A stretch of 64,000 nucleotides of DNA from Planctomycetota bacterium (GCA_002687715.1 NZBC01000048.1:6402-70401), one strand, 5' to 3'; shown: positions 21,654 to 62,972, counted from the first letter of the stretch. The notes: generated by a model from the sequence alone, not told the origin. Made by a program: numbers and translations.

Positions 21654-21659
21654 TCACCC

Positions 21660-23417: not shown

Positions 23418-25988
23418 ATGAAGATCCTCGCCAGCCTGCTAATCGTGCTCGTGGCGGTCGCGCTCCCGGTCACCGCCCAATCCGAAACCGCGGTTCGCGT
23501 GATGACCACCGACCAGGGGTCGCAGCGGATCATCGTCGACACGGCGCACGGCGATCAGACGTTGCACCATACGCAATACGCGGTGCTGAACGCCCGCGTA
23601 CATCCGGTAGCCGGGTCGTCGGCCGTGGGCCTCACCTGGACCGAGCTGCGCCCCGGCCGACCGGTGCAGTTCCAGACCGTCAGCGTTGACGGCCAGAAGT
23701 TCATCGAGCCTCGGGAAACGACCTACGACCTGCAGTTGAAGTACGGCGGGTTCGACCCGTTGTTCGCCCAGCCGCAGATCCCGGCTCACCTGGACGCGAA
23801 CCAGGGCGGGCGTCAGTGGATCGTCCAGTACTGGACCCAGGGCCTCGAGCAGTATCGTGACGAGCTCCGCCGCCTCGGCGCCGTGATTCACCTCCATCTG
23901 CCGAACCACGCCAACGTCGTCGAGATGGATCCGTCGCTCGTGTCGACGGTCGCCACGCTCCCCTTCGTCCGCGCAGTGGTCAGCTTCCACCCCGCGTACA
24001 AGCTCGAGACGTCGCTTCTGACCGAGCAGCTCCAGGGCTTCTCCGGATCCGCGACCCGTCGCATCAACATCATGGCGTTCCGCCGTGGTCTCGTCGGGCA
24101 GAACCCGATCGCTGCTCGCGTGCGCGCGCTCGGCGGCTCGGTCCACAAGCTCGACCCGTACATCTTCACGATGGTGGCCACCGTCAACATCGGCATCATC
24201 GCCGACCTCGCCCGCATGGACGAGGTCCAGTGGATGGATCCGTACGGCGACCCCGAGGACGACATGAACATCGCGCGCCAGTTCCACGGCGCCGACTACA
24301 TCGAGACCCAGGCCGGATTCGACGGCACCGGAGTCCGCGCTGAGGTCCTCGACAGCGGCTGCCTCACCACCCACCAGGAGTTCCAGTCGCCGCCGCTCAT
24401 CCCGCACGGCGCGCTCGTGTCGGCCTCCCACGGCACCAGCACCACCGGTCAGGTGTTCGCGACGGGCGTCGACCCCACCGCGCGGGGCATGCTCCCGGCG
24501 GGCCAGGGCGTCGCGGCGTTCTACAACGGCCTCGCCGGCGGCAGCCGCTACAACCACTCGGCTGAGCTGGTCAACCCGGGGCTCGGCTACCGCTGCGTCT
24601 TCCAGACCAACTCCTGGGGTGGCCCCCGGACGACGTCCTACAACAGCTCGTCGCAGGAGATGGATCTCATCCTCTTCGATCTCGAGAGCCTGGTCATCAC
24701 CCAGTCGCAGTCGAACGCGGGCAATCAGATGTCGCGCCCGCAGGCGTGGGCGAAAAACTGCGTCGGCGTCGGCGCCGCGGATCATGTCAACACCCTGACC
24801 CCGAACGACGACAACATCTCCGGCGCCAGCATCGGCCCCGCGCAGGATGGACGCGTCAAGCCGGAGCTCGCCAGCTTCTACGACAACATCCGCACGACCT
24901 CCAACTCCAGCACCACGTCGTACACCAACAGCTTCGGCGGCACCAGCGGCGCGACTCCCATCGTCGCCGGGTCCTTCGGCCTCTTCTACCAGATGTGGCA
25001 CAACGGCATCTTCGGCAACCCGACCGCCACCACGGTGTTCCAGAGCCGTCCGAAGAACACGACCGCCCGCGCGTTCATGATCGCCGGTGCGCGTCAGTGG
25101 AACTGGCCCGGCGTTCCGGCCAACAGTGGACTGGACCGTGACAAGCAGGGCTGGGGCCATCCGGACCTGCAGCGGCTCTACGACTACCGCAGCCGCATCT
25201 ACTACGTGGATGAGACCGACTTCCTCACCAACCTGCAGAGCACGTCGCACGCCGTGACGGTCCCCGCGGGCGAGACGCTCTTCAAGGCGTGCCTCACCTG
25301 GCGCGACAACCCCGGCACGGTGTCGGCTACGCAGCACCTCATCAACAACCTCGACCTCCGCGTGACCTCGCCGAGTGGGCAGGTCTACCTGGGCAACGTG
25401 GGCCTGACCAACAACGCCTCCGGCAGTGCGGGCGAAGCCCTGTTCTCGTCGACCGGCGGCAGCGCCGACACGAAGAACTCGGTGGAGAACGTGTTCGTCC
25501 AGAACCCGCAGGCCGGCACCTGGGTCGTCGAGGTCATCGCCACGAGCCTGAACCAGGACATCCACCCCGAGACCTCGGCGCTCGACGCCGACTACGCGCT
25601 GTGCATCCTCGGAGTGCTGCCAGGCACGGTTTCGTTCTTCGACCTGAGCCTGACCTCGAATGCCGGCGGTGACCTGACGATGGACATCGACAACGTCCCC
25701 GCCGGAACGACCCAGGGCTTCACGGTGTTCTCGGAGATGGCGGCCGGCCCGGTGGGCGGTGGCGTCCTGTTCGGCCTCAACCCGACCCTGATCTCGCTGT
25801 TCTCGTTCCAGGTCCCGGTCGGGGTCGGCAACGTGTTCCACTGGTCGTACCCGTCCGGTGGTGCGTATCCCGACGCTCCGGTGACGTTCCCGGGCCTGCC
25901 CGCGAGCCTCTACCCGATCGATGCCGTGGGACTCGCGATCGACGGCGCCTTCAACATCTCGGTGACCCCGAACCGCCGCGCTCTCTGA
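23418..25988 (+). CDS. Secreted S8 (subtilisin-like) serine protease
   Basis: Signal peptide; VLDSG (Asp), SHGT (His), FGGTSGATP (Ser); NNLDLRV P-domain; C-terminal domain. Confidence 0.9.
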   Translation: MKILASLLIVLVAVALPVTAQSETAVRVMTTDQGSQRIIVDTAHGDQTLHHTQYAVLNARVHPVAGSSAVGLTWTELRPGRPVQFQTVSVDGQKFIEPRETTYDLQLKYGGFDPLFAQPQIPAHLDANQGGRQWIVQYWTQGLEQYRDELRRLGAVIHLHLPNHANVVEMDPSLVSTVATLPFVRAVVSFHPAYKLETSLLTEQLQGFSGSATRRINIMAFRRGLVGQNPIAARVRALGGSVHKLDPYIFTMVATVNIGIIADLARMDEVQWMDPYGDPEDDMNIARQFHGADYIETQAGFDGTGVRAEVLDSGCLTTHQEFQSPPLIPHGALVSASHGTSTTGQVFATGVDPTARGMLPAGQGVAAFYNGLAGGSRYNHSAELVNPGLGYRCVFQTNSWGGPRTTSYNSSSQEMDLILFDLESLVITQSQSNAGNQMSRPQAWAKNCVGVGAADHVNTLTPNDDNISGASIGPAQDGRVKPELASFYDNIRTTSNSSTTSYTNSFGGTSGATPIVAGSFGLFYQMWHNGIFGNPTATTVFQSRPKNTTARAFMIAGARQWNWPGVPANSGLDRDKQGWGHPDLQRLYDYRSRIYYVDETDFLTNLQSTSHAVTVPAGETLFKACLTWRDNPGTVSATQHLINNLDLRVTSPSGQVYLGNVGLTNNASGSAGEALFSSTGGSADTKNSVENVFVQNPQAGTWVVEVIATSLNQDIHPETSALDADYALCILGVLPGTVSFFDLSLTSNAGGDLTMDIDNVPAGTTQGFTVFSEMAAGPVGGGVLFGLNPTLISLFSFQVPVGVGNVFHWSYPSGGAYPDAPVTFPGLPASLYPIDAVGLAIDGAFNISVTPNRRAL

Positions 25989-26009
25989 GTCGGCCCGGTT
26001 CTGGATGAG

Positions 26010-26050
26010 ACGCGGTCCGCGGCCCAGGGTCGCGGACCGCGTTTCTTTTT
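26010..26050 (+). terminator. Intrinsic terminator
   Basis: 12-bp stem ACGCGGTCCGCG/CGCGGACCGCGT followed by TTCTTTTT. Confidence 0.85.
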
Positions 26051-26107
26051 CGACCATCACCGGCGCGCCGCGACCGGACCTCCCCTCTCAGAGGTGGAGG
26101 AGATCCG

Positions 26108-26425
26108 CTGGGGAATACGACATCCGACAGCGACGACCGGATCGGCAAGCTCACGGAGGAGGCGGCTCGCCTGCTCGCGGGCGGCCAGGCGCCCGACGTG
26201 GAGGCGCTCGAGGGTCGATTCGGCATCCCGCCCAAAGTCGCACGACGATGCCTCGAAGCGCTGGGCGCCCTCGATGCCGCGCTGGACGGCGATCATGGCC
26301 CTAGCCCGGCCCGGCAGAGCCACTCAGATCGACCGCGTTTTCGCGACCTGGCTGACGCTCGGAATGGTGCTGGCCGCCCTCTGGGCAGCGCTCCGCCCCC
26401 ACCAGATGGTCGCCGGCGGCCCTAG
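26108..26425 (+). pseudogene. Possible N-terminal remnant of a planctomycete Ser/Thr kinase
   Basis: GGAGGAG RBS then CTG; DRIGKLTEEAARLLAGGQAPDVEALEGRF...RCLEALGALD resembles the pre-kinase helical leader, but no kinase domain follows. Confidence 0.4.
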
Positions 26426-26626
26426 TCCGGCCCTTCGTGCCGTGCTGCGGCGGCCTCGGAGCCAGGATTTGGGGTGAAACCGGCGGGGACCCCCGGGTAC
26501 ACTCACTCGAGGATCTTCCCCTTCCTCTTGCTCTCGTCCCCCTAACAGCGTCCGTTCAGTAGCGCTCTGCCACAGCTCCCCCCTGCCTGGGGCGTGCTTG
26601 GTCGAGTCCTCTGTGCAAGAGATTCC

Positions 26627-29200
26627 ATGCACCACAGAACAATCCTCCGTGCCGCGATGGTGGCCCTCACCATTTCGACGTGTGCCTGGGCCCAGGGCGA
26701 TGCCCACATCGGCATCGATCCGAACGGGCATCAGCTGGTCATCGCAGACACCGGTCTCCGGACCGCAAACGTCCACGAGACCAAGTACCCAGTCCTTCAG
26801 CCCGTGCTGCGCACGGTGCCGGACAGCTCCATCGTCGCAGTGACCTGGTCGGAGCAACAGCCGAGCGGGCTCGTCGACTACTACTCGATCAGCCTCGACG
26901 GCAAGACGTTCCTGCCGGCCAAGGCGACGAACTACGTCCTGAAGCTGCGCTTCGGCGAGTACGACCCGATGCAGGGCATCCCCGGCGTTCCCCCGCACCT
27001 GGACGCGAACCAGGGGGGCAACCTGTGGATCGTCCAGTTCTGGACGCAGGCCCTGCCGGCCTATCGCGACGCGCTGCGGGACCTCGGCGCGTCGGTCCAC
27101 ATGCATCTGTGGAACCACTCGAACGTCGTCGAGATGAGTCCGGCGATGGCGGCGGCCGTCCAGGCCATGCCGCACGTTCGTGCTGTCGTCGCCTACCACC
27201 CGGCCTTCAAGCTCGACGAGACCCTCCTTCAGGAGCAGATCGCGGGCTACGCCGCGCAGGATCCGAAGCAGATCAACGTCGTCAGCCTTCGCCGCGGACT
27301 CGCGGCGCAGAATCCGATTGCAGACCGCATCCGTGCGATGGGCGCTCCCGTCCATGCAACGTCACCTGGCGTCTGGCAGATCCGGTCGACCCTGAGTCTC
27401 GCGCAGGTCGCGGAGCTCGCCCGCCGCGACGACGTGCAGTGGATCGAGATCGAGTCGCCGGGCCGCTACACCGCGGACATGGACATCGCAAAGGTCTTCC
27501 ACGGCTCGACGTACGTCTTCAACAACGCCGGCTTCGACGGCACGGGAGTCCGGGGCGAAATCTGCGACACCGGCACCCAGGCGTCTCACCCCGAGTTCCA
27601 GGCGATCCCACTCATTCCTCACGGGGTGAACAACGCGGGCTCGCACGGCACCAGCACCTACGGACAGATCTTCGCGTCGGGCGTCAACGCCCAGGCGAAG
27701 GGTATCTGCCCGAACGGTCAAGGTATCGCCAACCAGTATCAGAACTGGGCCGGCGGCAGCGAGTACAACCACACGTCTCAGCTATCCAACCCCGCGCTCC
27801 AGTACCGCGCCGTCTTCCAGACGTTCAGCGGTTTCACCGGGCTCACGACCACCTACAACTCGGGCTCGCAGACCGCCGACCAGATCCTCTTCGACAACTC
27901 GCGCATGACCATGACGCAGTCGCAGAGCAACACCGGCAACCAGAACTCGCGTTCCCGTGCGTGGGGCAAGAACTGCGTCGCCGTCGGCGGCATCTCCCAC
28001 GGCAACACGCTCACCAAGGCGGATGATGCCTGGACCGGCGCCAGCGTCGGCCCCGCGTCGGACGGCCGGGTGAAGCCGGAGCTCGCCAGCTTCTACGACA
28101 ACATCTTCACGACCACGACGACCAGCAACTACACGTCGGGCTTCGGTGGCACCTCGGGCGCCACTCCGATCGTCGCGGGCCACTTCGGCATCTTCTATCA
28201 GATGTGGCACAACGGCATCTTCAACAACCCGACGTCGACGTCGGTGTTCGACAGCCGCCCGGAGAACACGACGGCGCGCGCGATGATCGTCGCGTCAGCG
28301 ACGCAGTGGCCGTTCTCCGGTGGCGCCAGCAACATCCACCGCGATCGCCAGGGCTGGGGCCACCCCGACCTGCAACGTCTCTACGACAACCGCCTGAACC
28401 TGCTCTACATCAACGAGACCGACGTCCTCGCGCCGCTCTCGTCGACGATTCACGTCATCAACGTGTCCAGCGGTGAGCCGGAGTTCCGCGCGACGCTGTG
28501 CTGGCGCGACAACCCGGGCACCCTGTCCGGCTCGCAGCACCTCATCAACGACATGGACCTCCGCGTCACCTCGCCCTCGGGCATGGTGTACTGGGGCAAC
28601 AACGGGATGACGAACGGCGTCTCCGGTTCCGCCGGCGAGAACGAGTGGACATCGGTGGGCGGCAGCCCCGACACGACCAACTCGCTCGAGAACGTCTTCG
28701 TGCAGAACCCGCAGGCCGGCCCCTGGCTCGTCGAGGTCATCGCCTCGAACATCAACCAGGACAACCACGTCGAGACGGGAGCGCTCGACGCCGACTACGC
28801 GCTCTGTGTCATCGGCGGCCCCGCCGGCCCCCCGACGTTCTTCAACCTCGACCTCCAGACCAACGGCAACGGCGACATCTTCTTCGAGGTCCAGAACATC
28901 CCCGCCGGCACCAACCAGGGCTGGTGCTTGTTCTCCAGCGACACCTCGGGCCCGCAGGGCGGTGGTGCGGTGTTCGGGCTCTACCCGGACTTCCTCACTC
29001 TCCAGACCCTCATCAGCCCGTTGGCCGCCGGCAACCCGCTCCACTGGAGCTACCCAGCGGCCGGGCTGTTCCCGGACGTCCCGTTCAGCCTCCCCGCCGG
29101 CTCGCTCCCGCCGGCCTTCTTCCCGCTGGACGGCGTCGCCATCGCCACGGATCCCGGATTCGCGAGCGTGAGTTCTTCCCCGGTCCGCCGCGTCAACTGA
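26627..29200 (+). CDS. Secreted S8 serine protease (paralog of 23418-25988)
   Basis: Signal peptide; ICDTG, SHGT and FGGTSGATP motifs; colinear with the upstream paralog. Confidence 0.9.
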   Translation: MHHRTILRAAMVALTISTCAWAQGDAHIGIDPNGHQLVIADTGLRTANVHETKYPVLQPVLRTVPDSSIVAVTWSEQQPSGLVDYYSISLDGKTFLPAKATNYVLKLRFGEYDPMQGIPGVPPHLDANQGGNLWIVQFWTQALPAYRDALRDLGASVHMHLWNHSNVVEMSPAMAAAVQAMPHVRAVVAYHPAFKLDETLLQEQIAGYAAQDPKQINVVSLRRGLAAQNPIADRIRAMGAPVHATSPGVWQIRSTLSLAQVAELARRDDVQWIEIESPGRYTADMDIAKVFHGSTYVFNNAGFDGTGVRGEICDTGTQASHPEFQAIPLIPHGVNNAGSHGTSTYGQIFASGVNAQAKGICPNGQGIANQYQNWAGGSEYNHTSQLSNPALQYRAVFQTFSGFTGLTTTYNSGSQTADQILFDNSRMTMTQSQSNTGNQNSRSRAWGKNCVAVGGISHGNTLTKADDAWTGASVGPASDGRVKPELASFYDNIFTTTTTSNYTSGFGGTSGATPIVAGHFGIFYQMWHNGIFNNPTSTSVFDSRPENTTARAMIVASATQWPFSGGASNIHRDRQGWGHPDLQRLYDNRLNLLYINETDVLAPLSSTIHVINVSSGEPEFRATLCWRDNPGTLSGSQHLINDMDLRVTSPSGMVYWGNNGMTNGVSGSAGENEWTSVGGSPDTTNSLENVFVQNPQAGPWLVEVIASNINQDNHVETGALDADYALCVIGGPAGPPTFFNLDLQTNGNGDIFFEVQNIPAGTNQGWCLFSSDTSGPQGGGAVFGLYPDFLTLQTLISPLAAGNPLHWSYPAAGLFPDVPFSLPAGSLPPAFFPLDGVAIATDPGFASVSSSPVRRVN

Positions 29201-29232
29201 TCCGCGACCGCGTCTTGCGGCGCGCATGACGA

Positions 29233-29270
29233 AACGGCGCACGACCCTCGGGTCGGGCGCCGTTCTCTTT
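29233..29270 (+). terminator. Intrinsic terminator
   Basis: AACGGCGC-CGACC / GGTCG-GCGCCGTT stem followed by CTCTTT. Confidence 0.7.
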
Positions 29271-29318
29271 GGTTGCGATGGCGCCACCGGAATGCCCCGG
29301 CCGAGGTACTGTCCGGTC

Positions 29319-29582
29319 ATGGCCAACCGCGAAGCACGCTGCCCGCTCTGCCGCGGGACGTCATTCACGTACGGGCAAGTCGGGCGCGGCCTGCTCGGAC
29401 ACCACCCGAACCGCCTCTACCGGTTCTTCCACGCGAGCACTGCCCGCTACCGGGGGCGAGCGGCCATCCGGTCGTTCGTCTGCACGGGCTGCGGATACCT
29501 CGGAACCTACGTGGACCCGGCCGACCTCGAGCGCATGCGCGACCAGGGACGCAAGCTCTACAACGTCCGAGACCAGTACTGA
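29319..29582 (+). CDS. Small zinc-ribbon protein
   Basis: CPLC...CTGCGY; start chosen downstream of the terminator. Confidence 0.65.
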   Translation: MANREARCPLCRGTSFTYGQVGRGLLGHHPNRLYRFFHASTARYRGRAAIRSFVCTGCGYLGTYVDPADLERMRDQGRKLYNVRDQY

Positions 29583-29613
29583 CATCCCCCACCGACGAGA
29601 CTCGTGCTCTCGC

Positions 29614-31700: not shown

Positions 31701-32195
31701 CGTGTACGTGGCGATGAGGTTCGTGAACGTCCCCGCCCCATCGTCCTGGTAGACGTTGAGGGTCCCGATCGTGGCGCCGATACGAGAGAGCGCGAAATCC
31801 AGCGTGAAGCTCGAGAGCTGGGTCGCGTCGATGACACAGGTGTCGAGGATGAACTGCGCCGTTCCGCCGGCTCCCGACGTCTCGCAGTACACGTGGTTCG
31901 GCATGGTCGAGGCCGTCGTCGGGCCGGTGGCGGACGAGGACGTACCGCCGGTGTCGCTGGTCCAGGGCTGGGAACCGCCGCCGTCCACGAGACCCTGAGG
32001 GAAGAGCCCCGCTCCGAGGGTGGTCAGCGCGTCGAAGCTCCACGACGTCGGACATGGGATGACGGCGTAGTCGACGCCGGCCGAGAGGGTGACGCCGTCC
32101 GGATGACCAGGATCAAGGGTGAGCATCTGGCCCGCGACCGTCAGGGGCACCGGGGGCGAGAGGTTGATGCTGATGGGGCCCGAATACGGCGTCAC
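31690..32195 (-). pseudogene. Fragment of a MAM-like domain secreted protein
   Basis: WTSDTGGTSSSATGP...VYCETSG...LDFALSRIGATIGTLNVY; truncated at both ends. Confidence 0.6.
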
Positions 32196-32342
32196 GAGCG
32201 GAAAGCAGCCAACAGAGGCGTTGTCATCTCGGGATGGACGGCCTCTCTGGACTCCAGCTGCTCGAGGTGGCGGACCTTGTGTATGACCCGAGACGGAGCC
32301 ACAGATTCTAGCGCCCCCGGGGGACGGGCACCGTCCTCCGGT

Positions 32343-33998: not shown

Positions 33999-34117
33999 GG
34001 GTGGTTCCTCCACGTTCCGGTGATGACTCGTCCGCTTTCGAGTCTGCATCGGGGCTCAGGATAACGTTCGGACGGCGGGTCCGGTGACCTTCAGCCGTCT
34101 TGGGTAGACTCCCGCGG

Positions 34118-36991
34118 ATGCGCCCCAAGACGCTCCCGATGGCCTTCGGCCTCGCCGCCCTTCTTCTCGCCCTCCCCCCCCTCGCCGTCGGCCAGGGCGG
34201 TTTCACCCTGGACCAGGTGCTCAGTGCGCCCTTCCCGTCCTCGCTCGTGGCCGCCCCGTCGGGCGCCCGGATCGCCTGGGCCTACGTCGCTCAGGGACGC
34301 CGGGGCATCCGGGTCGCGGAGGCGCCCGAGTGGACGCCGCGGGATGTGGTCAGGTGGCCGAACGACGACGGCGCCGTGGTTTCCGTCCTCGGGTTCTCGG
34401 GAGACGGCGCGCAGGTGGTGTTCACGCGGGGATTCCCCTACAACCCCGCGAATCTCGACCGTCCCCCACGGCCCGCGCTGTTCAGGATCCCCTGGAAAGG
34501 TGGCCCGCAAGTCCGGCTGTCGTCTTCGACCACGGTCGCATTGAGCCCGAACCGGCCGCTCGCAGCCAGGATGTCCGGAGGCGACCTCACCCTGCTGAAG
34601 CTGGTAGGCGCGGCGCGCCCCTCGAAGCTCTGCGCGTTCCGCGGTTCGGCCGACTCGCTGCGCTGGTCGCCGGACGGGACCCAGATCGCGGTGCGCGTGC
34701 GACGCGCCGGCAAATCGGGGATCGCGGTGGTCGATGTCGGGACGAGGAAGATCACCCATTTGCCGATGTCCCCGACCAGGATCGGGGCGCCCGTGTGGTC
34801 CCCCGACGGACGGCGCCTGGCCCACGTCACGTTCGCCCGACGGGGCAGCCCCGGCAGCCTGCTCGCGAGGAGGCCGTACCCGAAGCCGGACGCGTGGTCG
34901 ATCACCGTCGCGGATCTCGCTCCGGGCACCGTGCGGTCATCTTGGCCCGAGGACGCGAGCGCGTCGCGATGGGCGCGGGTCGCCTGGCGCGACGAGGATC
35001 ATCTCCTGGTGCTGTCCGAGCGCGACGGCTGGCGTCGGTTGTACACCTGCGCCGTCGGCGACCCGCCCGTTGCAGTCAGCCCCACTCACGCGATCGTCGA
35101 AGGCTTCACCGTGGATCGCACGCGCGGCCGTCCGGTGTTCGTCACCAACGCCCTTGACCTCGATCGGCGTCACCTGTGGACGTGGACGCCGGACCAGGGT
35201 CTCTCCGCAAGGACGCCGGGGACGGGCATCGAATGGAGCCCGGTCATCACGGGCGACGGGCGGTGGATGGCACATCTCGCTTCGAGCGCACGTCGGCCAG
35301 CGCACGTCGTCGTGAAGCCGATCGACGAGAAGTCCGTCAACGAGAAGAAGTCCCGACGACTCGACACCGACCTGCCCGCGACGTTCCCGTTGAAGAAGCT
35401 CGTAGAGCCCAAGCCGGTGATCGTGCGCGCGGCGGACGGGACGCAAGTGCACTGTCAGCTCTTCCAGGCAGCCGCCCCGGCGAAGCGACGGCCCGCGGTG
35501 CTGTTCTTCCACGGCGGACCCATCCGCCAGATGCTGCTCGGCTGGCACTACCGCCACTACTACCACTGCGCCTATGCCCTGAATCAGCACCTCGCGTCCC
35601 AGGGCTACGTCGTGCTGTCGGTGAACTTCCGGATGGGCATCGGCTACGGCGCGAAGTTCCGGGACGTGCCGGACGGGGGGCCGCGCGGCGCGTCGGAATA
35701 CCAGGACGTGCTCGCCGCGACGAAGTGGCTCCAAGAGCAACCCGGCGTCGATGCAGCGCGGATCGGCCTGTGGGGCGGCTCGTATGGCGGCTTCCTCACC
35801 GCTCTCGGCCTGGGCCGCAACTCCGACCTCTTCGCGGCGGGCGTCGACCTGCACGGCGTTCACGACTGGAACGCGTGGCAGAAGTGGGTCCGACGTGGAC
35901 GTTCGAGTCAGACCAACGCACTGGCCCACAAGTCGTCGCCGGTCGCCGCGCTCGATGGCTGGCGATCACCGGTCCTGCTCGTCCACGGGGACGACGACCG
36001 CAACGTCCCGTTCTCGGAGACGACGCAGCTCGCCAAAGCACTGAAGGAGCGCGGCGTTCCTCACGAGGTCGTCACGCTCCCGGGTGAGATTCACTCGTTT
36101 CTGCTCCACCAGAGCTGGCTCCGGGTCTTCGGCGCCGCCGCCGGTTTCCTCGACCGGAGACTGAAACAGAAGGCGTCGCCGGTCGCGCCCATCGCAGACG
36201 GCGCCGCCCGCTACGAGTTCCACCTCGACGGCGTCCCCATCGAGACGTTCACGTACAAGCCGAAGAGCTATCGCGGCGAACGGATGATCATCGTGATGCA
36301 CGGAACGCTGCGCAACGCCGACGAGTATCGCGACCACGCGGTCGCGATGGGCGAGCGCTTCGGTGCACTCGTCGTCGCGCCCCGATTCGACCGCCGACGG
36401 TTCACCAGTCGGCGGTACCACCGCGGCGGCATCCTGACCGCGGATGGCAAGGCCGCCCCGAAGGGCGAGTGGACGTACCGGTTCATCCCCATGCTCGCGA
36501 GGTCAGTGCGCGAGATGGAGCAGCGAGCGAACCTCCCGTTCACCGTCATCGGACACTCGGCTGGCGGCCAGTTCGTCGCACGCATGTCGGCATTCCAGGA
36601 CACGGGCGCCGTACGTCACGTCGCGGCGAACCCCGGCTCTGAGCTATTCCCGACCCGGGACTTACCGTTCGGTTACGGATTCGGCGGACTGCCGCCCACC
36701 CTGGCGGACGACACGGCGCTGAAACGCTACCTCGCCGTCCCGCTGACGCTCTACCTGGGCACCGCCGACGACCGGCCGGACGAGTACTTCGACCAGAGCC
36801 CCAATGCCATGAAGCAAGGGGGCGGGCGGCTTCAGCGCGGTCGCGCATGCTTCGCAGCAGCATCGAAGCTCGCCAAAGAACGCGGCTGGCCGTTCCACTG
36901 GCGAATCGTCGAGGCGAAGGGCGTCGGCCACGATCATCAGAAGATGTTCGACCACGCAGCATGCGAAGCCGCCCTGTTCGGGAAACGTTGA
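34118..36991 (+). CDS. S9 family peptidase fused to a second alpha/beta hydrolase
   Basis: Beta-propeller; GGSYGG...HGDDDRNV...EIHSF triad; a second GHSAGG...GTADD...GVGH triad. Confidence 0.88.
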   Translation: MRPKTLPMAFGLAALLLALPPLAVGQGGFTLDQVLSAPFPSSLVAAPSGARIAWAYVAQGRRGIRVAEAPEWTPRDVVRWPNDDGAVVSVLGFSGDGAQVVFTRGFPYNPANLDRPPRPALFRIPWKGGPQVRLSSSTTVALSPNRPLAARMSGGDLTLLKLVGAARPSKLCAFRGSADSLRWSPDGTQIAVRVRRAGKSGIAVVDVGTRKITHLPMSPTRIGAPVWSPDGRRLAHVTFARRGSPGSLLARRPYPKPDAWSITVADLAPGTVRSSWPEDASASRWARVAWRDEDHLLVLSERDGWRRLYTCAVGDPPVAVSPTHAIVEGFTVDRTRGRPVFVTNALDLDRRHLWTWTPDQGLSARTPGTGIEWSPVITGDGRWMAHLASSARRPAHVVVKPIDEKSVNEKKSRRLDTDLPATFPLKKLVEPKPVIVRAADGTQVHCQLFQAAAPAKRRPAVLFFHGGPIRQMLLGWHYRHYYHCAYALNQHLASQGYVVLSVNFRMGIGYGAKFRDVPDGGPRGASEYQDVLAATKWLQEQPGVDAARIGLWGGSYGGFLTALGLGRNSDLFAAGVDLHGVHDWNAWQKWVRRGRSSQTNALAHKSSPVAALDGWRSPVLLVHGDDDRNVPFSETTQLAKALKERGVPHEVVTLPGEIHSFLLHQSWLRVFGAAAGFLDRRLKQKASPVAPIADGAARYEFHLDGVPIETFTYKPKSYRGERMIIVMHGTLRNADEYRDHAVAMGERFGALVVAPRFDRRRFTSRRYHRGGILTADGKAAPKGEWTYRFIPMLARSVREMEQRANLPFTVIGHSAGGQFVARMSAFQDTGAVRHVAANPGSELFPTRDLPFGYGFGGLPPTLADDTALKRYLAVPLTLYLGTADDRPDEYFDQSPNAMKQGGGRLQRGRACFAAASKLAKERGWPFHWRIVEAKGVGHDHQKMFDHAACEAALFGKR

Positions 36992-38997: not shown

Positions 38998-39011
38998 CCG
39001 CGGAACGGACC

Positions 39012-39356
39012 TCAACCCGCAAACGACCGAAGCGCGTCTTCCCGGGTGGCGTGGATGTCGATGACCCGATGCATGCGAACCATCTCGAACATCGAACGCA
39101 CGGGGGCGCTGATGTTCCCGAGCTTGAGGTCGCCGCCGGCAGCGTTGAGCCGACGCAGGCAAGACAGGATCGCACCGAGTCCTGCGCTGTCGACGAAGGT
39201 GACGTTCCCGAGGTCGAGCATCATTCGCACACCGGGCTGAATCTGGTCTTGGACCTCCTGCCGGAACGCCTTGACCGTTTCCGCGTCGAGGGTCCCCTCC
39301 GCCAGGGTCACGACGACGATGCCGTCGATGCTCTCGGCCGTCATCTGCATGCTCAC
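39012..39356 (-). CDS. STAS-domain anti-sigma factor antagonist
   Basis: LDLGNVTFVDSAGLG with the phosphorylatable Ser. Confidence 0.92.
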   Translation of the reverse strand: MSMQMTAESIDGIVVVTLAEGTLDAETVKAFRQEVQDQIQPGVRMMLDLGNVTFVDSAGLGAILSCLRRLNAAGGDLKLGNISAPVRSMFEMVRMHRVIDIHATREDALRSFAG

Positions 39357-41371
39357 TCTCCTCCGAATCCCTTGACCAAGGTCAGCACGTTCTCACCCTG
39401 CGGCGTCCGCTCATAGCGGACGTCATCCATCACGTTGCGAACGAGGAATATGCCGAGCCCGCCAGCCGACTCGTGGGAGAGGTCCGGCTCGGGTTCTGAC
39501 AGTGGGTCGAACGGCGCACCCGTGTCGCGCAACTCCAACGTGACGTGGTCCTCGGCGGGTTGAATCTCCAAGGCAAAGCACCCCGTCTCCCCCTCCGGCC
39601 ACGCATGCCGGATCACGTTCGATGCGGACTCGACCACGGCGAGTTGGACATCGAACATCGTCTGCTCGTCCGCCGCCAATCCGGGCAACGCCCGACAGCG
39701 GTCGAGAACGAAACGGCGGACCGAGGACAAGGACGACATCAATGCCGGGAGCTCGAGCTTCCACAGCGCCGGACCGTCCTCGATCCGGACCACGACGCAC
39801 GACAGGTCGTCGCTCAGGCCCACGGGCCCCGCGAAGTCGGTGACGACGTCGCGCAATCGGGCAGCAATGTCCGCGGCAGGTAGCGCAGCGCAACCTACGA
39901 GCGCCGCCGCGAGTCGCTCCACTCCGAACATCTCGCCAGACCATCCCGTAGCCTCCGTCATGCCGTCCGAGTAGAGGACGAACACGTCGCCCTTGACGAA
40001 GTGCACGTCTGCGGTCTCGTACTGCGTCGAGGCGTGCATCCCCAGCGGGAGGTTCACCAGGCCATCCCACTCCTTGCGAAGCCGATCCACCCGCCCCGTC
40101 CGACGCCGATAATGCAACCCCGGCGTGTGACCCCAATCGACGTACTCGAGCCGCGACGCGCCAGGCCGGAACCGCGTGTAGACCCCCGTGGCGAACGTGT
40201 CGACCTCGATCAGGCTCTCGGCCATGTCGCGATGAACCCGCGCCACGACCTCGTCGGGAGAACCGACGTGCTTCGCGTGCACCGAAGTCGCAGCATGGCG
40301 TGTGAAGTGGTTCTTGATCGCCGCACCGACCATCGCCGCCGGGAGCCCCTTCCCCATCACGTCACCGACGATGACGTCCGTGACGTCATCGTCGTGGGTG
40401 AAGAACTCCAAGAAGTCACCGTCGACCTGGCGCGACGCCACGGACACCGCAGCGACATCCAGGCCGGGCGTGAGATCGGGGACTCTGCCGATGAGCAGCG
40501 TCTCCTGGATCGTGGCCGCGATATCGAGCTCATGCTCGAGTTGCTTGGACTGGAGATGGCGCTGCCGCAGCCGGTCGTGGTCGACGATCATCGCCGACAG
40601 CGCGCAGAGTGCGCGGAGGTGCCCCATGTGTCGCGAGTCGAACGTCCCAGCATCGTCGTGCCAGACCTGCAGGGCGCCGATCGGCCCGGACTTGAGCAAC
40701 AAGGGAGAGATCGCGACCCGGTTGGCGAGCGCGAGCTCCGGAGCGGTCTCGTCGTCGTGCCGCCACCCGTTCACGATCAGGCCCTGGCCGATCTCCAACG
40801 CCCGACCAACGATGCCGCCGGTCCGTGGACGCGGGGAAGGCTCCGCGGTCCCTTCCCATCTGGCGGGGGTCAACGCTTCCCCGTCCGCCAACCACATGAT
40901 CGCCCGGAGACCGGGCTGGAACGCGACCGCACGCTCGATGATCGCCTGGAGCGCCCGCTCCGGCTCCAGTACCAACGCCGGATCGTCACTCAGTTCGTAC
41001 AACGACGCGAGGCTCTCGTGGGACACGAGGAGCTCTTCGCACAGGTGGTCACGATCTTGCTCCAGATCCGCGATCTGTCCGGAGAGGCAGAGAACCGCAT
41101 TGAGTCCGGCGTGCGCCGGACCGCGCACCCAGACTTCAGCCGCGTCGCCTCCACCGGAGATGTGCAGGAATCGCCAGCCATCTCCACCAGGCTTGCCGTC
41201 GAGGAACGGCGCGCCGACCTCGTGCGGACAATCAGCCGCGCGCGACAGCCATTGCACCTCGTCGCGCAATCGGACGGCGAGACTGTGCGTGGACCGCCCC
41301 GCAAGGAGCGGCTCGGTCAACCGTCGCAAGACGTCGATGAGCGGAGAGGGGATGTGCGGCGCGGTCACCAT
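39353..41371 (-). CDS. GAF + SpoIIE/RsbU PP2C phosphatase + RsbW-like HATPase fusion
   Basis: VDGDF, GDVMGKG, YSDGMTEA and DDLS phosphatase motifs; VESASNVIRHA, DTGAPFDP and GGLGIFLV kinase motifs. Confidence 0.9.
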   Translation of the reverse strand: MVTAPHIPSPLIDVLRRLTEPLLAGRSTHSLAVRLRDEVQWLSRAADCPHEVGAPFLDGKPGGDGWRFLHISGGGDAAEVWVRGPAHAGLNAVLCLSGQIADLEQDRDHLCEELLVSHESLASLYELSDDPALVLEPERALQAIIERAVAFQPGLRAIMWLADGEALTPARWEGTAEPSPRPRTGGIVGRALEIGQGLIVNGWRHDDETAPELALANRVAISPLLLKSGPIGALQVWHDDAGTFDSRHMGHLRALCALSAMIVDHDRLRQRHLQSKQLEHELDIAATIQETLLIGRVPDLTPGLDVAAVSVASRQVDGDFLEFFTHDDDVTDVIVGDVMGKGLPAAMVGAAIKNHFTRHAATSVHAKHVGSPDEVVARVHRDMAESLIEVDTFATGVYTRFRPGASRLEYVDWGHTPGLHYRRRTGRVDRLRKEWDGLVNLPLGMHASTQYETADVHFVKGDVFVLYSDGMTEATGWSGEMFGVERLAAALVGCAALPAADIAARLRDVVTDFAGPVGLSDDLSCVVVRIEDGPALWKLELPALMSSLSSVRRFVLDRCRALPGLAADEQTMFDVQLAVVESASNVIRHAWPEGETGCFALEIQPAEDHVTLELRDTGAPFDPLSEPEPDLSHESAGGLGIFLVRNVMDDVRYERTPQGENVLTLVKGFGGE

Positions 41372-41805
41372 CAGTCGACCGGGGCTCCGATCCGCGGCTG
41401 CACCCCGAGCGCCTCGAGCCGACGGAGGAGGCGCTGCGGGCTCATGGGTTTCGTGAAGTGGGCGTCGGCGTCAGCCCAGCCGGATTCGTCCCGGCGGCTC
41501 TCGAACCCCTGCCCGGTGTGGATCATGATGCGGAGGTCGGGAAAGTCGCGGCGCAACTCTCTGCACAGCTCGAGTCCCGAACGCCCCGGGAGCACCACGT
41601 CGAGGATGACCGCGTGGGGCTCGAACTCCTCGACCCGGGCCCGCACCTCGTCTCCGTCGCTCTCCACCTCGACCTGGTAGCCCGCCCGCTCGAGCTGGAA
41701 CCTCATGAGGTACGCGGTGTGACGTACCTCGTCCACGACGAGTACCCGGCCACGCTCCATGCCCTCATCCTCCGGCAGCCGCTGGCTGCTGCGTGCCTCG
41801 TTCAC
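41371..41805 (-). CDS. Single-domain response regulator receiver
   Basis: VLVVDE, ILDVVLPG, HTG and FTKP motifs; the start may be the internal ATG at 41760. Confidence 0.88.
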   Translation of the reverse strand: MNEARSSQRLPEDEGMERGRVLVVDEVRHTAYLMRFQLERAGYQVEVESDGDEVRARVEEFEPHAVILDVVLPGRSGLELCRELRRDFPDLRIMIHTGQGFESRRDESGWADADAHFTKPMSPQRLLRRLEALGVQPRIGAPVD

Positions 41806-42137
41806 GTGAACCGACTCCGCCGAGCCGGTTTCGACACCCGCCTGGCTCCGGTGGGGTGGGGAGCCGCTCCGTTCGAATTGTCGGCAGAAAGCGTCCGAGA
41901 CCCTGCGGACGAGCCCCGGCCTATCGATCGCGAACGCACGATCTGGCCGATCCGGCCGGGTTCAGGACCGCACGTGGCTCCACCGCCCCAGGGGCGCTCC
42001 AGCGCCTCGAACCTCCTCACCTCCCTCAAAAACCCGCACCCAACGTCACTCCGGCATCCGCGAGAAGGTCCCGGCATAGCCGTTGCGTTAGGTGCCGTCG
42101 GAACGAACAATCTCTGCGTCACATCGGGAGAAGACAA

Positions 42138-45026
42138 GTGGATCGGAGCGCACCTCTCATTTCGAAGTTACTGGTCGTCCTGACCTTCATCGCGACCTCG
42201 GTGTTCATCGCCGGGTGCGGTGGAGGCGGCAGTGGTGGGGGTGGGGGTGGCGGCCCCGCGCCGGGAGGCGGGTTCCTGACCATCACCGGAACCGTCTTCT
42301 ACGGCTTCGCGACGGGAGCCGGCGCGAACCGGAATCCGTTCCCCACGACGCCGCCGCTGGGAGTGCCCTTGCCCGCGGCAGCACCTCCGGGGTCGGGCAG
42401 CGTCAGCGGCGCGGAGTTCGGACTAGGGAATCCCGGGGAGCAGACGTTCATCGAGCTGACGTTCAACGTACCTCTCGATGCCACGACCATATTCCCGGGT
42501 AGCGGCGCCGCCACCGACGGAATCGTCATCTTTCTGAACACGATCGTCGGCGGGGCTCCTCAGTCCACGCCGGTGTCCTTCGTCCTCGACGCGGCGGGTG
42601 TCCTCAACGCCCAGAACGAGTTCCCCACGCCGACCGTCGCGCCGGCAACGTTGCGGCTCTACTACGATACCGACAACAACATCACGACCCCGGAGCGTCT
42701 GCCCGAGGGGTCCTACACCCTTCGTGTAACGGGCGCGCTGCGCGCCTCCGGCGGCGGCCTGTTCTGTACCGGTCCCAGCGGAACCGGCTGTAACGGCGCG
42801 GACGGATACCTGCCGGAGCTCTCGTTCAACGTCGGCAACGACACGACCCCCCTCGCGATGCGCGGCGGCGGCAGCGGCGTCGGCGCGAGCAACATCACGC
42901 AGGGCGACACCTCGGTCCCGCGCAACTCAGAGATCCATCTGAACTTCTCCAAGTCGGTGGACTTCCCATCCCTCGTCGGAGCCGCGAATCTCACCTCGCG
43001 CGACCCGTTCATCACGATCCCCTTCGGACTCGCGGCGGGTGCGTGCGCGACGGCGCCCGTGTTCGGTGCGAACATCGGCAACCTGTTCGTGGGGTACAAC
43101 GCGCCGACGAACCCCGGAACGGGAACGCCCGAGTCGCTGCCCATCGGCCTCGGTGTCGTCGTATACATGCCGGACCCGATCCTCGCCCCGAACCACGTAC
43201 GCGTTCGCTTCGTCGACGCGAGGCCGGCGCCCGCCGGCACGACGCCTGGGACGAGCGCGGAGCTCTCCGGCCTCGAGAACCTCAACCCGGGCGCGGGCCC
43301 GGTGACCTACCAGAACTACGCCAGCAACCCGACGCGCCTTCCCATCGCGAGCAACGCTCCCGGACAGGCGGTGGTGCTCCCGATCCCCGACCTGGAGGTG
43401 GTTCCCGGGTCGACCAACGGGTACAGCCCCGCGCTCGGTGCGACGGACCCACGGGCAGCGATCGTCGACCTGATGATCTCCGGTCCGGCGTTCGGCAATC
43501 CGTCCGGGATCGTGTGCGCGGCGCTTCCCGGCGGCGTTTTCGATCGCGTCTCGATGCCCGCCGCCAACGCGTTCGTGTTCAACCAGGTCCAGGCGGACTA
43601 TTGGCTGCGGTTCATCTTCGCCGAGAGCCCCGCACAGTCGAAGAACCCGCATCCGCCCGACGCCGTCTTCGTTGGCACGCAGAACGGGACGCCGGGGATC
43701 TCCGTCATCAATACCGCGCAGACCATGTCGGAGATCGGGGGCGTCACCACGGGTACGTGGGCGCCGAGCTGGGCCGGTGCCCAGCCGATCGGGACCGTGC
43801 TGCAGCAGCCGGAACCGCTCTCGGACCCCGGCATGCAGCCGATCGATCTCGAGATCGGTCACTGGATCCTGACCCAGACGACCCAGACTCCGACACAGAA
43901 CAACAGCATCGCCAACCCCGGCCGCGGCGTCACCGCGATCCCGGGGACGCCCGACACGCAGAACTCCACGACGCCGGACGGTCTCCTCGGCGTCCTCGGT
44001 GTTCAGCCTTCGCCGTTCCCGCCGCTGCAGCCGATGGGGAACTTCCTCTATGTCGCAGACGGAACGCAGAACATCGTCCGGATCCTGAACGGCTACGACT
44101 ACTCGCAGATCGGGATCATCAACGGCGTGGGCTCCCCCGGCGGTCTCGCGATCTCACCGGACCTAGAGTTCCTCTACGTCACGAACTCGCTCGGCGCCCA
44201 GCTCATCCGCGTCTACGCCAACCCCGTGGGTCCGCTCTTCCACCAGATCGCCCAGGTGATCGCTGTCGGTTCTGCACCGGGCGCGGTCTCAGTCCAGCCC
44301 GGGAACGAGGACGCCATCGTCTGCAACTTCGGGGAGAACTCCATCTCCATCGTCGACGTGAACGCTGGCCAGGAAGTGGACCGTCTCGCCCTCCAGGGCG
44401 GCATCGGCCCGAGCGAAGTGCTCATCACGAACCGGATGACCCCCGGGACCGCCGCGTACATGGCATTCGTCCTCAACCGGTTCAGTGACAACGTGAGCGT
44501 GTACGAGTCCGACTCCCCGCTCGTCCCGGAGAACGGCACCTACGGTGTCATCAAGGCCACGATCGGCGGGTTCAACGGCCCGCGCCGCGGCTGCTGGAAC
44601 CTGATCACGTTCATCGGCCTGACGACCGAGCCCGGTGCGTTCATCGCCAACACCCAGGGTGACCGGGTGGAAGAGCTCACGCTCACCAACTTCACCCTGT
44701 CGACACCGCCGCCCCTACCCGGCCCCGTCGGCACCCGGACGTTCCGCATCCTGAAGACGTACCCGAGCCTCGGCCCCCTCGCCGGCGCCGCCCCGTCCGA
44801 CGTCAGCATCGACACGAGCTCCGGCCTCTACAACGTCCTCGCCTTCGGTGTGAACAACAACAAGAGCATGGCCGACCCCTCCGTCGGCGGCGGCACCCCG
44901 ACCTTCGTGCTGGTGAGCTACCCATCGGCCGGCCTCGTCGCCGTCTGGGACCACGGCGCGCCCGTCCTGCGCTCGACCGCGAACGTGCCCGGGTGCGACT
45001 TCATGCAGTCGTACTACGACCAGTAG
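42138..45026 (+). CDS. Large lipoprotein with Ig-like domains and a YVTN-type beta-propeller
   Basis: GTG start after GGGAG; lipobox IAGC followed by poly-Gly; LYVAD/LYVTN repeats. Confidence 0.8.
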   Translation: MDRSAPLISKLLVVLTFIATSVFIAGCGGGGSGGGGGGGPAPGGGFLTITGTVFYGFATGAGANRNPFPTTPPLGVPLPAAAPPGSGSVSGAEFGLGNPGEQTFIELTFNVPLDATTIFPGSGAATDGIVIFLNTIVGGAPQSTPVSFVLDAAGVLNAQNEFPTPTVAPATLRLYYDTDNNITTPERLPEGSYTLRVTGALRASGGGLFCTGPSGTGCNGADGYLPELSFNVGNDTTPLAMRGGGSGVGASNITQGDTSVPRNSEIHLNFSKSVDFPSLVGAANLTSRDPFITIPFGLAAGACATAPVFGANIGNLFVGYNAPTNPGTGTPESLPIGLGVVVYMPDPILAPNHVRVRFVDARPAPAGTTPGTSAELSGLENLNPGAGPVTYQNYASNPTRLPIASNAPGQAVVLPIPDLEVVPGSTNGYSPALGATDPRAAIVDLMISGPAFGNPSGIVCAALPGGVFDRVSMPAANAFVFNQVQADYWLRFIFAESPAQSKNPHPPDAVFVGTQNGTPGISVINTAQTMSEIGGVTTGTWAPSWAGAQPIGTVLQQPEPLSDPGMQPIDLEIGHWILTQTTQTPTQNNSIANPGRGVTAIPGTPDTQNSTTPDGLLGVLGVQPSPFPPLQPMGNFLYVADGTQNIVRILNGYDYSQIGIINGVGSPGGLAISPDLEFLYVTNSLGAQLIRVYANPVGPLFHQIAQVIAVGSAPGAVSVQPGNEDAIVCNFGENSISIVDVNAGQEVDRLALQGGIGPSEVLITNRMTPGTAAYMAFVLNRFSDNVSVYESDSPLVPENGTYGVIKATIGGFNGPRRGCWNLITFIGLTTEPGAFIANTQGDRVEELTLTNFTLSTPPPLPGPVGTRTFRILKTYPSLGPLAGAAPSDVSIDTSSGLYNVLAFGVNNNKSMADPSVGGGTPTFVLVSYPSAGLVAVWDHGAPVLRSTANVPGCDFMQSYYDQ

Positions 45027-45086
45027 GCTGCATCCGTTCATCGAGTGGTGATGCCCCGGCCTGACAACCGGGTTCGGCCAGTGGTC

Positions 45087-46808
45087 TTACTGGATCGCGA
45101 CCCGCACGACGGGTGCCACCGGTCCCAGCTGGGTGCCCGTGAAGTCGAAGCAGACGGCATCGAGCGTCAGTGGCGGGACCGAGACTGGAGCCCAGGTGAC
45201 CGCACCCTGGTTCGCGATGAAGTGGAACGGGGCGGCGCCCACCGGGGCTTGCACCTGCGCGATGAGGAACGCCGGGTTCGTCGCACAGAGGCCGAGGAAG
45301 ATGCCGGAACCGACCGGGCCGGGGCAGGGCTCGGGGCTGAAAACGTTGAAGTACTCGTTGCCGACGGTGAGCCCCGTGTTCTCGATGATCAAGGGCGTGC
45401 CGGGTCCCCCGGGCTGGGTCATCGAGAGCGCGGGGGTGGGGACGGAGAACTCCCAGGCGCCGATGTCCCAGGCACCACCGAAGGGTCGCGGGTTGCCGCT
45501 GAAGTCGACGGTGAAGAATGACGACAGGTCCTCCCCCGCATCGCGAGCCGGGCTCCCGAACTGGAGGCGAGCGCCAGTCGCGGTCATCGAGGAAACGGAC
45601 CCCTGGAACTGGGGGTCGGCCACCAGCCCCGTCGGGTCATGGCCCAGGTTCTCCCAGGCCGCGAAGTCGATCTCGGTGGTATTGACGTCGAATCGCCCAC
45701 CGATCGATAGCGGATCGTCGTCCGGCCAGTACAGGTTGCGCTCCATGAGGGCGGCCGCCGTCGAGTTGAGCACCCAGTGCATGGACTCGGCACTCGCGCA
45801 GTAGGAGATGTTGTTGCGGACGTCGACGTTCCAGGCCTGGTCGGCCAAGAACGACGGGCCTGCATCCACCACGTTGAGATTCACGATGGTGTTGTTGTGG
45901 GCCGTCAGGGTTGCCTGATCGACGACGACGATCCCGCCGCCGAGGTTCGCGGCGTCGGGCGCGATCACGATCACGTTGTTGTAGGCCGTCCCAACGCTGC
46001 CCAGCCCGTACACGCCAATCGCGCGCTTGCTGCGCCCGCTGATGAAGTTGCTGTGCGCGACGAACCGCGACCCCTGCCCCGAGGGTCCGCGCGAGCCGTT
46101 GATGCCCGCCTTGGTGAACGGGCCGACGATCGTGTTGCCGGAGATCTCACTCACCGGCCAGAACGAGTCATGCAGTGCGATGCCGTCCACCGCGAGCAAG
46201 GTCGTGCCGAGGTCGTGGATGTTGCACCCGCGCACGTTGACGGCGGTCACATACGCGTTGACCGCATCGTTCTCGCAGTGGTGGATATGGCAGTCCTCGA
46301 TCGTCGCGATCCCCGGCTGCCAGAGCGCCACCACTCCGTAGTTTGAGGCCAGCTCGATCTCGCATCGCCGGACGACGACCCGGTCGCAGACGCGAAACTC
46401 GACCGTATTCTGGCCTCCGATCAGATGCAGATCCTCGATGATGACGTCGGTGCGGAGATCGAGGTACACCGCTCCCGTAGTCATGCTCGATCCGCCGTCG
46501 ATCACGGGCGGAGCCCCGACGCCATAGCGCCCGACGATGATGGGGTCGGTCGGAGAGCCGGACCAGCCGACGACGAACTCACCGGCCCAGGTGTCGTCGG
46601 CGCGCAGCAAGACGCGATCGCCGGGCAGGAGCGGCGCGTTGGAGGCGCGCGCGAGTGACTGCCAGGGCGCTGCCGGCGACGTCCCGGCGTTCAGGTCGTT
46701 GCCGGCGCTGGCAGAGACGTAGTAGCTCACGCCCTGGGCCGGGACTGACGCCGAGGCCAGCAAGCAGATCACGACCACGAACGTGCCAAGAGTGGTGGGG
46801 GTTGGCAT
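45087..46808 (-). CDS. Secreted right-handed parallel beta-helix protein
   Basis: Signal peptide; YYVSASAGNDLNAGTSPAAPWQSL; beta-helix repeats; WDIGAWEF motif; C-terminal domain. Confidence 0.85.
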   Translation of the reverse strand: MPTPTTLGTFVVVICLLASASVPAQGVSYYVSASAGNDLNAGTSPAAPWQSLARASNAPLLPGDRVLLRADDTWAGEFVVGWSGSPTDPIIVGRYGVGAPPVIDGGSSMTTGAVYLDLRTDVIIEDLHLIGGQNTVEFRVCDRVVVRRCEIELASNYGVVALWQPGIATIEDCHIHHCENDAVNAYVTAVNVRGCNIHDLGTTLLAVDGIALHDSFWPVSEISGNTIVGPFTKAGINGSRGPSGQGSRFVAHSNFISGRSKRAIGVYGLGSVGTAYNNVIVIAPDAANLGGGIVVVDQATLTAHNNTIVNLNVVDAGPSFLADQAWNVDVRNNISYCASAESMHWVLNSTAAALMERNLYWPDDDPLSIGGRFDVNTTEIDFAAWENLGHDPTGLVADPQFQGSVSSMTATGARLQFGSPARDAGEDLSSFFTVDFSGNPRPFGGAWDIGAWEFSVPTPALSMTQPGGPGTPLIIENTGLTVGNEYFNVFSPEPCPGPVGSGIFLGLCATNPAFLIAQVQAPVGAAPFHFIANQGAVTWAPVSVPPLTLDAVCFDFTGTQLGPVAPVVRVAIQ

Positions 46809-62939: not shown

Positions 62940-62972
62940 CGGGAATCCCTCCGAGACTGCACGGGAGACCAT

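Follow-up and report, generated by a model that had tools for sequence, protein, structure and literature searches.

An undescribed, strictly C-terminal domain shared by unrelated exported proteins in an order of Planctomycetota

Several kinds of C-terminal module are known to be common to otherwise unrelated exported proteins. The C-terminal domain (CTD) of the type IX secretion system (T9SS; type A, TIGR04183 / Por_Secre_tail) is a folded, immunoglobulin-like (Ig-like) beta-sandwich that forms the last domain of Sec-exported proteins, with one copy per protein, tens of copies per genome, highly diverse passengers and a restricted range of lineages. PPC (PF04151) is likewise a C-terminal beta-sandwich of secreted peptidases and other exoenzymes, and is removed after secretion, while dockerin and SLH modules are terminal modules that bring many enzymes to one scaffold or envelope polymer. 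The PEP-CTERM/exosortase, LPXTG/sortase and related short signals (PMC1569441; bioRxiv 10.1101/2023.06.07.544157) also present C-terminal homology between otherwise unrelated secreted proteins in patchy lineages; they are short tripartite tags composed of a motif, a transmembrane (TM) helix and a basic tail. Here we describe a further module of this general kind, found in a stretch of 64,000 nucleotides from a Planctomycetota bacterium (GCA_002687715.1, NZBC01000048.1:6402-70401; hereafter the window), in which two S8 subtilases (P0001 and P0002) and an unrelated, right-handed beta-helix protein (P0003) end in the same domain of ~120 amino acids (aa).

We conclude that this domain is an undescribed, lineage-restricted and strictly C-terminal module of an unnamed family, and we regard the reality of the family and of its modularity as practically beyond doubt. 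Although it resembles the T9SS CTD in all of the respects listed above, there is no sequence match between the two; T9SS CTDs measure roughly 70-100 aa and belong to a group of Bacteroidota, whereas the new domain is longer, has a planctomycetotal host, and has no sortase-like partner identified here. It differs from PPC in that its range of carriers is much wider and that no carrier has a Pfam match to that family (E<=1e-3), and from the PEP-CTERM and LPXTG signals in being a soluble, folded domain of 120 aa ending in ...R[VI]T[FW], with an occurrence that the presence of exosortase does not follow. Dockerin and SLH modules are likewise unmatched in Pfam, no cohesin-like scaffold was found, and the new domain is instead an FN3-like sandwich. 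Its best structural match lies among the FN3/Ig-like accessory domains of exoenzymes (Pel3, PDB 4u49; VIA Z 8.0), from which it is nonetheless set apart by ~35 extra residues, an identity of 8-14% and the lack of a Pfam fn3 match.

The domain family and its carriers

A sequence-only reading of the window had aligned the tails of both S8 proteases with that of the beta-helix protein, and their homology was borne out, at the positions given in Table 1 and with the motifs that this reading had singled out. The tail of P0001 matches that of P0003 with a BLASTP E of 5e-7 and 39% identity across 92 columns, a significant alignment, and the pairwise match of P0002 to P0003 is weak (E 0.064). A seed profile made from the three tails retrieves them at E 3e-58, 1e-56 and 1e-38, and an iterated profile at 2e-39, 4e-30 and 1e-17, the value for P0003 in the latter coming from a profile built mainly from main-type tails. 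All three fit the family definition, which comprises a C-terminal position, a length of ~120 aa and the consensus motifs GDL..., [FW]T[LF]xS, GxGPxFG[LI]xPD, PGNPFH[FW], LPPG, GxTxDxV and SNVxR[VI]T, the last followed by 0-2 residues.

The genome that contains the window (G000; 5.82 Mb, 288 contigs, 77% complete) was searched as 52,407 six-frame open reading frames (ORFs) of at least 60 aa. The seed profile matched 37 of these at a domain E<=1e-3, with E-values down to 1e-58, and 1e-19 for unrelated proteins, and all 37 matches stop 0-11 aa before the stop codon. Iteration converged at 39 members; the default HMMER filters lost four members of a Cys-containing type, which the --max option regained together with four more, and a refined 43-row profile run with --max yielded 47 members at E<=1e-5. 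In every one of the 47 the domain ends no more than 12 aa (mostly 0-3) from the stop, and each carrier protein holds a single copy. Six weaker additional matches (1.8e-4 to 4e-3) include LTD and astacin/FG-GAP proteins; five of them end no more than 5 aa before the stop codon, and the sixth 16 aa before it. The carriers terminate in a soluble beta-strand (...SNVxR[VI]T[FWLQ]), with F or W as the final residue in 22 of 39 members, and neither a TM helix nor a basic tail follows the domain, as had been noted from the outset. A Cys subtype (CPG...GLC...VCF) that includes the P0003 tail accounts for ~10 tails in this genome, and in a tree of the domain (56 rows, none omitted; midpoint root for drawing only) the P0003 tail clusters with five other Cys-type tails (96/96 support).

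One part of the sequence-only reading did not survive, namely the claim that looser versions of the domain close two further secreted proteins of the window (P0004 and P0005 in Table 1). Neither ORF is among the profile matches listed at a sequence E<=10, jackhmmer searches with the last 115 aa found no paralogue in the genome, and hhalign against the 39-row alignment gave the low probabilities shown in the table, that for P0004 covering the last 31 columns only. Elsewhere in the genome, terminal tails on LTD, FG-GAP, astacin and trypsin proteins match weakly (C216:10650-15995, C191:7172-10405 and C20:5559-9359; E 1e-3 to 4e-3), and the domain family may be part of a wider superfamily of terminal sandwiches in G000.

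No Pfam family (2025 copy; 3 + 43 + 56 proteins scanned) lies on the tail of any carrier scanned, NCBIfam 20.0 holds nothing relevant for the 39 tails even at E<=10, and a profile search of PDB sequences returned a chance row alone (E 0.62). A word-indexed protein search with the domain profile gave only four short hypothetical proteins, and full-text searching, in the portions of the literature that it returned, turned up nothing on such a domain. The family is therefore unnamed, as had been supposed, and as far as sequence comparison with Pfam and NCBIfam goes it is not a characterised family of carbohydrate-binding modules (CBMs) or Ig domains. An AlphaFold2 model of the P0002 tail, computed with the 39-row alignment, predicts a beta-sandwich of nine strands and one short helix (pLDDT 96.4, pTM 0.88). 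Foldseek against the PDB gave no match at E<=1e-3, the best being a fragment of the Aureispira grappling-hook protein (E 5e-3, TM 0.49), while VIA-align against 48,161 chains placed first the N-terminal FN3-like domain of the pectate lyase Pel3 (83 residues, root-mean-square deviation 2.9 A) and then a list dominated by FN3 domains with Z 6.3-7.7; values of Z <=8 are common for models without a clear match. As regards the comparison with T9SS CTD, cohesin and Ig folds that had been proposed, the resemblance to FN3/Ig domains is a generic one, and structures of the T9SS CTD, PPC, cohesin and dockerin are not among the fold matches listed, which excludes none of them.

The carriers have the N-termini of exported proteins and bear a wide variety of passengers. 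Sec-type signal peptides begin P0001 (MKILASLLIVLVAVALPVTAQ), P0002 (probable start the ATG at 26627, MHHRTILRAAMVALTISTCAWAQ) and P0003, and a simple hydrophobicity heuristic, which also underlies the call for P0001, finds a signal-peptide-like N-terminus, typically ending in AQ or GQ, in 36 of the 39 first-round members; the remaining three are P0002, whose signal peptide is visible by eye, and two proteins truncated at contig ends. According to Pfam, the passengers in G000 include Peptidase_S8, Peptidase_M14 with CarboxypepD_reg, Trypsin_2, GH18 with CBM_2, CotH with LTD, LTD alone, Laminin_G_3, Beta_helix/NosD, LVIVD repeats, DUF4394, beta-propellers and PKD, the latter often as the final domain ahead of the tail. 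The same variety, together with FG-GAP, Kelch and DUF4214, recurs in 56 longer database representatives. CBM matches are confined to the passenger regions, the GH18 protein having CBM_2 (aa 37-134) and the CotH protein CBM_56. The sequence-only reading was to be supported if a profile of the three domains found tens to hundreds of C-terminal matches on signal-peptide proteins with diverse catalytic domains, and tens per genome were obtained, on passengers that include both enzymes and binding proteins; indeed, the many unrelated passengers show that the matches extend well beyond S8 paralogues.

The domain tree adds to this picture, in that one clade unites the tails of M14, S8 and trypsin-like proteins and of an unknown one (98/96) and another those of a beta-helix protein, another S8 and propellers (96/96), and that a CotH tail groups with an LVIVD tail. 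Since supported clades mix unrelated passengers, the domain has moved between unrelated genes. Carrier genes also lie side by side in G000, where we observed seven adjacent pairs (on C44, C247, C24, C74, C116 and C123, and at 23418-29200 of the window). Several of these repeat one pairing, in which the gene for a small unknown protein precedes one for a PKD or beta-helix-PKD protein, and this repetition suggests operon-like units.

Distribution and the S8 protease

Among 1.84 billion database representatives (50% identity), 642 match the profile at E<=1e-3, and 388 do so at E<=1e-10. Of the best 150 among the 642, 149 have a match that leaves at most 3 residues uncovered at the C-terminus; the sole exception (P0129) is a partial alignment that breaks off at position 103 of the profile and leaves 18 aa uncovered. 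All 22 sampled genomes of the window's order hold between 4 and 55 domain matches each, whereas in a first sample only one of the 18 genomes drawn from the phylum's other families gave a match, and a weak one (1.6e-4). Across 401 genomes of the phylum, 33 are positive at E<=1e-5, namely G000, the 22 of the order and 10 of 378 others, which agrees with the lineage restriction that had been surmised.

The 10 positive genomes outside the order carry just 1-2 copies each. Among 13 out-of-order ORFs examined, nine encode S8 subtilases that are orthologues of P0001 and P0002 and terminate in the domain, and four lack any Pfam family. An S8 protease with the domain is present in at least 8 of these 10 genomes, and in all five in-order genomes whose S8 locus was compared. 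As nine of the 13 out-of-order carriers are S8 proteases, the combination of S8 and domain is the most widespread architecture, and the window's order is consequently where the domain spread to other proteins; the S8 protease was probably its original host, from which it spread within the order. Outside the order the domain is found almost only on this one enzyme, so it may originally have been no more than an accessory domain of that protease. The out-of-order S8 tails form a separate clade in the domain tree (100/97). In the window, P0002 is 53% identical to P0001 over its full length and retains the DTG, HGT and GTSGATP motifs, which we take to be the seat of the catalytic Asp, His and Ser of S8 proteases.

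Not all S8 orthologues bear the domain. A search with the S8 protein found, at five loci in metagenome-assembled genomes (MAGs) of Acidobacteria, orthologues with tails of ~90 aa, which are CarboxypepD_reg in all three cases scanned with Pfam, and unrelated tails close the orthologues of two further MAGs, from other Planctomycetota. On a Planctomycetaceae MAG contig (L043), the last 125 aa of the S8 orthologue are a different, Cys-rich tail (TYCVGKTNSLGCVPF...) without a Pfam match, possibly another lineage-specific C-terminal module.

Function of the domain

The reading that we favour, and to which we give about an even chance, is that the domain is a shared targeting or anchoring module of Sec-exported proteins, in other words a common address tag on exoproteins. 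Once Sec had exported the protein, a single partner common to all carriers would recognise the folded domain. Such a partner might belong to the envelope and keep enzymes and adhesin-like proteins on the cell surface, or it might be a step of export through the outer membrane that recognises the folded module, as the T9SS does its CTD. We prefer sorting or anchoring because the terminal position is absolute, because there are non-enzyme passengers, because one carrier already has a CBM, and because three carry choice-of-anchor domains. The movement of the domain between passengers, its near-restriction to one order and the different tails of other S8 orthologues also speak for this reading. 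The carrier with a CBM is the GH18 chitinase, whose CBM is of family CBM2 and whose expected substrate is insoluble, so that the enzyme needs to leave the cell. Choice-of-anchor families are named for the different sorting signals that follow them in different lineages. Type Q occupies aa 413-454 of P0003, immediately ahead of the tail (NCBIfam NF041518, 41.4 bits, cut-off 25), and type B is found in two LVIVD carriers, with scores (98.6 and 99.9 bits) just below the NCBIfam cut-off of 100.

Several observations weigh against this reading. Most directly, no candidate for a translocon, sortase, receptor or scaffold emerged from the gene neighbourhoods, from the S8 loci or from family searches in five genomes (G000, three more of the order and one outside it). 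Clustering of every ORF located up to 8 kb from one of the 39 members returned large, common paralogue families as recurrent neighbours, namely Ser/Thr kinases, sulfatases and FG-GAP/astacin proteins. The kinases, which have TPR or FGE-sulfatase tails, contribute 11 ORFs within 8 kb of 14 carriers, which may just mirror the abundance of such kinases in the genome. At 14 S8 loci only an S9 peptidase (34088-36988 in the window) recurs as a neighbour; in six of them, including one in a genome outside the order, a homologue is situated no more than ~10 kb from an S8 gene that carries the domain. Exosortase is present in G000, in G003 and in the out-of-order genome, and searches did not find it in G002 and G012, despite their 37 and 55 copies of the domain; each genome has 5-8 secretins whether or not it belongs to the order, so that neither tracks the domain. 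The predicted fold, moreover, is a generic FN3/Ig-like sandwich with ~35 extra residues, and therefore holds little information on function. Cargo-less proteins made up of a signal peptide and the domain alone (at least two, one of 144 aa in G000, and one of 138 aa, P0019, in the database) are odd for a pure export signal; eight other short database matches start within a passenger or linker, without an N-terminal signal peptide, and appear to be truncated or to have a wrongly assigned start. A role as general tag is untenable outside the order, given 1-2 copies per genome and nine of 13 on the same S8, and the CarboxypepD_reg that takes the place of the domain in Acidobacteria is no sorting signal but an accessory beta-sandwich. 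Finally, mean identity among 15 S8 orthologues is 36% in the tail, as against 48% in the catalytic domain and 46% in the P-like domain. The secretion or anchoring role that the sequence-only reading proposed thus stands in part, being in line with the profile searches and the lineage restriction, while the machinery it implied was not found and the fold is generic.

Two side observations concern these neighbours. Ser/Thr kinases fused to FGE-sulfatase or TPR regions occur at 58456-61182 (-) and 62998-63729 (-) of the window and at loci L044-L054 of G000, often near ECF sigma factors, and are repeatedly encountered close to genes of secreted proteins. Two secretin genes of G000 (C162:36837-39979 and C162:46469-47839) lie ~6.5 kb from a carrier gene, which may be coincidence.

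Several of these same points would be accounted for if the domain were a substrate- or ligand-binding module, comparable to a CBM or an adhesion domain, that attaches secreted hydrolases and adhesin-like proteins to the same polymer or particle outside the cell, without any involvement in sorting. FN3/Ig-like folds are found in many binding modules of secreted enzymes, many carriers are hydrolases, the Acidobacteria orthologue bears another accessory sandwich at the same position, the domain is essentially confined to one protease outside the order, and both the stand-alone proteins and the moderate conservation of the tail would fit. However, binding modules usually also occur in N-terminal, internal or tandem positions, whereas this domain is present once per protein and always at the end, in 47 of 47 proteins of G000 and in 149 of the best 150 of the 642 representatives, the exception being a partial alignment. 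Moreover, the GH18 carrier already possesses a CBM2, other carriers (LTD, LVIVD, Laminin_G_3 and propeller proteins) are not enzymes, and no Pfam CBM family lies on the tail. We hold a pure binding role to be the main alternative, though less likely than targeting or anchoring.

A C-terminal pro-domain in the manner of PPC, serving folding, periplasmic transit or latency and cleaved after secretion without a dedicated receptor, with the S8 protease as a possible processing enzyme, appears improbable to us. It would suit the C-terminal position on secreted peptidases (S8, M14 and trypsin-like) whose tails cluster in the tree, the recurrence of the S8 with its tail in at least 8 of the 10 positive genomes outside the order and in all five compared within it, and the retention by the S8 of its DTG, HGT and GTSGATP motifs. 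Yet the junction has no conserved cleavage motif and the linkers vary, many carriers are not peptidases, and PPC itself is unmatched in all carriers.

Should targeting be the function, the order might have its own route for moving folded Sec substrates across or onto the outer membrane, of independent origin from the T9SS, with the domain as recognition signal and the domain-bearing S8 protease as processing enzyme. This would parallel the T9SS, whose signal peptidase PorU itself carries a CTD. A translocon encoded away from its substrates would explain why the neighbourhood analysis missed it. We put this arrangement forward as a speculation, and an improbable one.

That the domain is a divergent T9SS CTD, served by a cryptic T9SS in this lineage, seems very unlikely. 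The logic would be the same, in that proteins with a signal peptide and a variety of passengers share a folded C-terminal domain, Ig-like and ~100 aa long; however, none of the 39 tails matches any NCBIfam T9SS CTD model at E<=10, the tails have no Pfam family, and no T9SS CTD structure is among the fold matches listed, which excludes none. PorV was found in none of the five genomes, with a weak control (Bacteroides thetaiotaomicron, below cut-off) and with G000 77% complete, and neither SprA nor Por_Secre_tail was found in any of the five, in searches whose positive controls were silent and which carry little weight. That the similarity arose by chance or from the composition of a high-GC genome, as the 67% GC and the one weak pairwise comparison (E 0.064) might suggest, is refuted by profile E-values reaching 1e-58, and 1e-19 for unrelated proteins, by the 388 database representatives at E<=1e-10 and by the fixed C-terminal position, and is at odds with the confident AlphaFold2 model.

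The window and the significance of the domain

The positions of the genes and domains discussed above are collected in Table 1. The window has a GC content of 67% and encodes the phylum hallmark families PSCyt1, PSCyt2, PSD1 and DUF1501, and the run of hallmark genes at 3-9296 (-) supports its assignment to the Planctomycetota; in a protein atlas the nearest clusters are planctomycetotal, unnamed and without a Pfam family.

Table 1 Features of the window, with positions counted from its first nucleotide
Feature	Coordinates	Strand	Evidence
PSCyt1+PSCyt2 gene	3-1655	-	Pfam
P0004, secreted protein; tail not detectable as family member	1683..2819	-	hhalign probability 5%
PSCyt1+LRR gene	4554-5594	-	Pfam
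DUF1501 gene	5598-6932	-	Pfam
PSCyt2+PSD1 gene	6936-9296	-	Pfam
P0001, S8 subtilase gene, 856 aa	23418..25988	+	translation; Pfam Peptidase_S8 aa 336-527, E 1.8e-7
P0001 C-terminal domain, main type, last 117 aa	25635..25985	+	seed profile E 1.2e-56, 0 aa before stop
P0002, second S8 subtilase gene	26594..29200	+	translation; Pfam
P0002 C-terminal domain, used for folding	28838..29197	+	seed profile E 3.3e-58
S9 prolyl-oligopeptidase-family gene	34088..36988	+	Pfam Peptidase_S9 E 7e-38
P0003, secreted right-handed beta-helix protein, 573 aa	45087..46808	-	Pfam Beta_helix E 4.7e-14; signal peptide
P0003 C-terminal domain, Cys-containing subtype (NVFSPEPCPGPVGSG..GLC..VCF)	45090..45437	-	iterated profile E 1.4e-17
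P0005, secreted protein; tail not detectable as family member	57161..58315	-	hhalign probability 0.3%

Other genes of the window were noted in passing. Directly upstream of both S8 genes, MBOAT (AlgI-like) and AlgX-like SGNH genes at 20217-22724 (+) form a polysaccharide O-acetylation pair. An ORF of 885 aa at 9199-11853 (+) contains two sulfatase stretches and SGSH_C (Pfam) and resembles a tandem fusion of two sulfatases, while a partner-switching module at 39015-41961 (-) consists of a STAS protein, a GAF-SpoIIE phosphatase fused to a HATPase_c_2 kinase-like domain, and a response regulator. Four large ORFs match no Pfam family and have a coding-like GC3; they lie at 41709-45023 (+), which is convergent with the beta-helix gene of P0003, and at 32346-34055 (-), 50899-52935 (+) and 60993-62981 (-).

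With 642 representatives, none named in Pfam or NCBIfam, the family deserves an entry of its own even if the domain is merely a binding module. Little is understood of the way in which Planctomycetota carry hydrolases and adhesin-like proteins beyond the outer membrane or retain them at the surface, and one tag on ~47 exoproteins per genome would offer a computational handle on the secretome of an uncultured order, the tagged set spanning proteases, carboxypeptidases, a chitinase, and CotH/LTD and beta-helix proteins. If a partner of the domain exists, the family would provide a second example, beside the T9SS, of a folded C-terminal domain that serves as an address.

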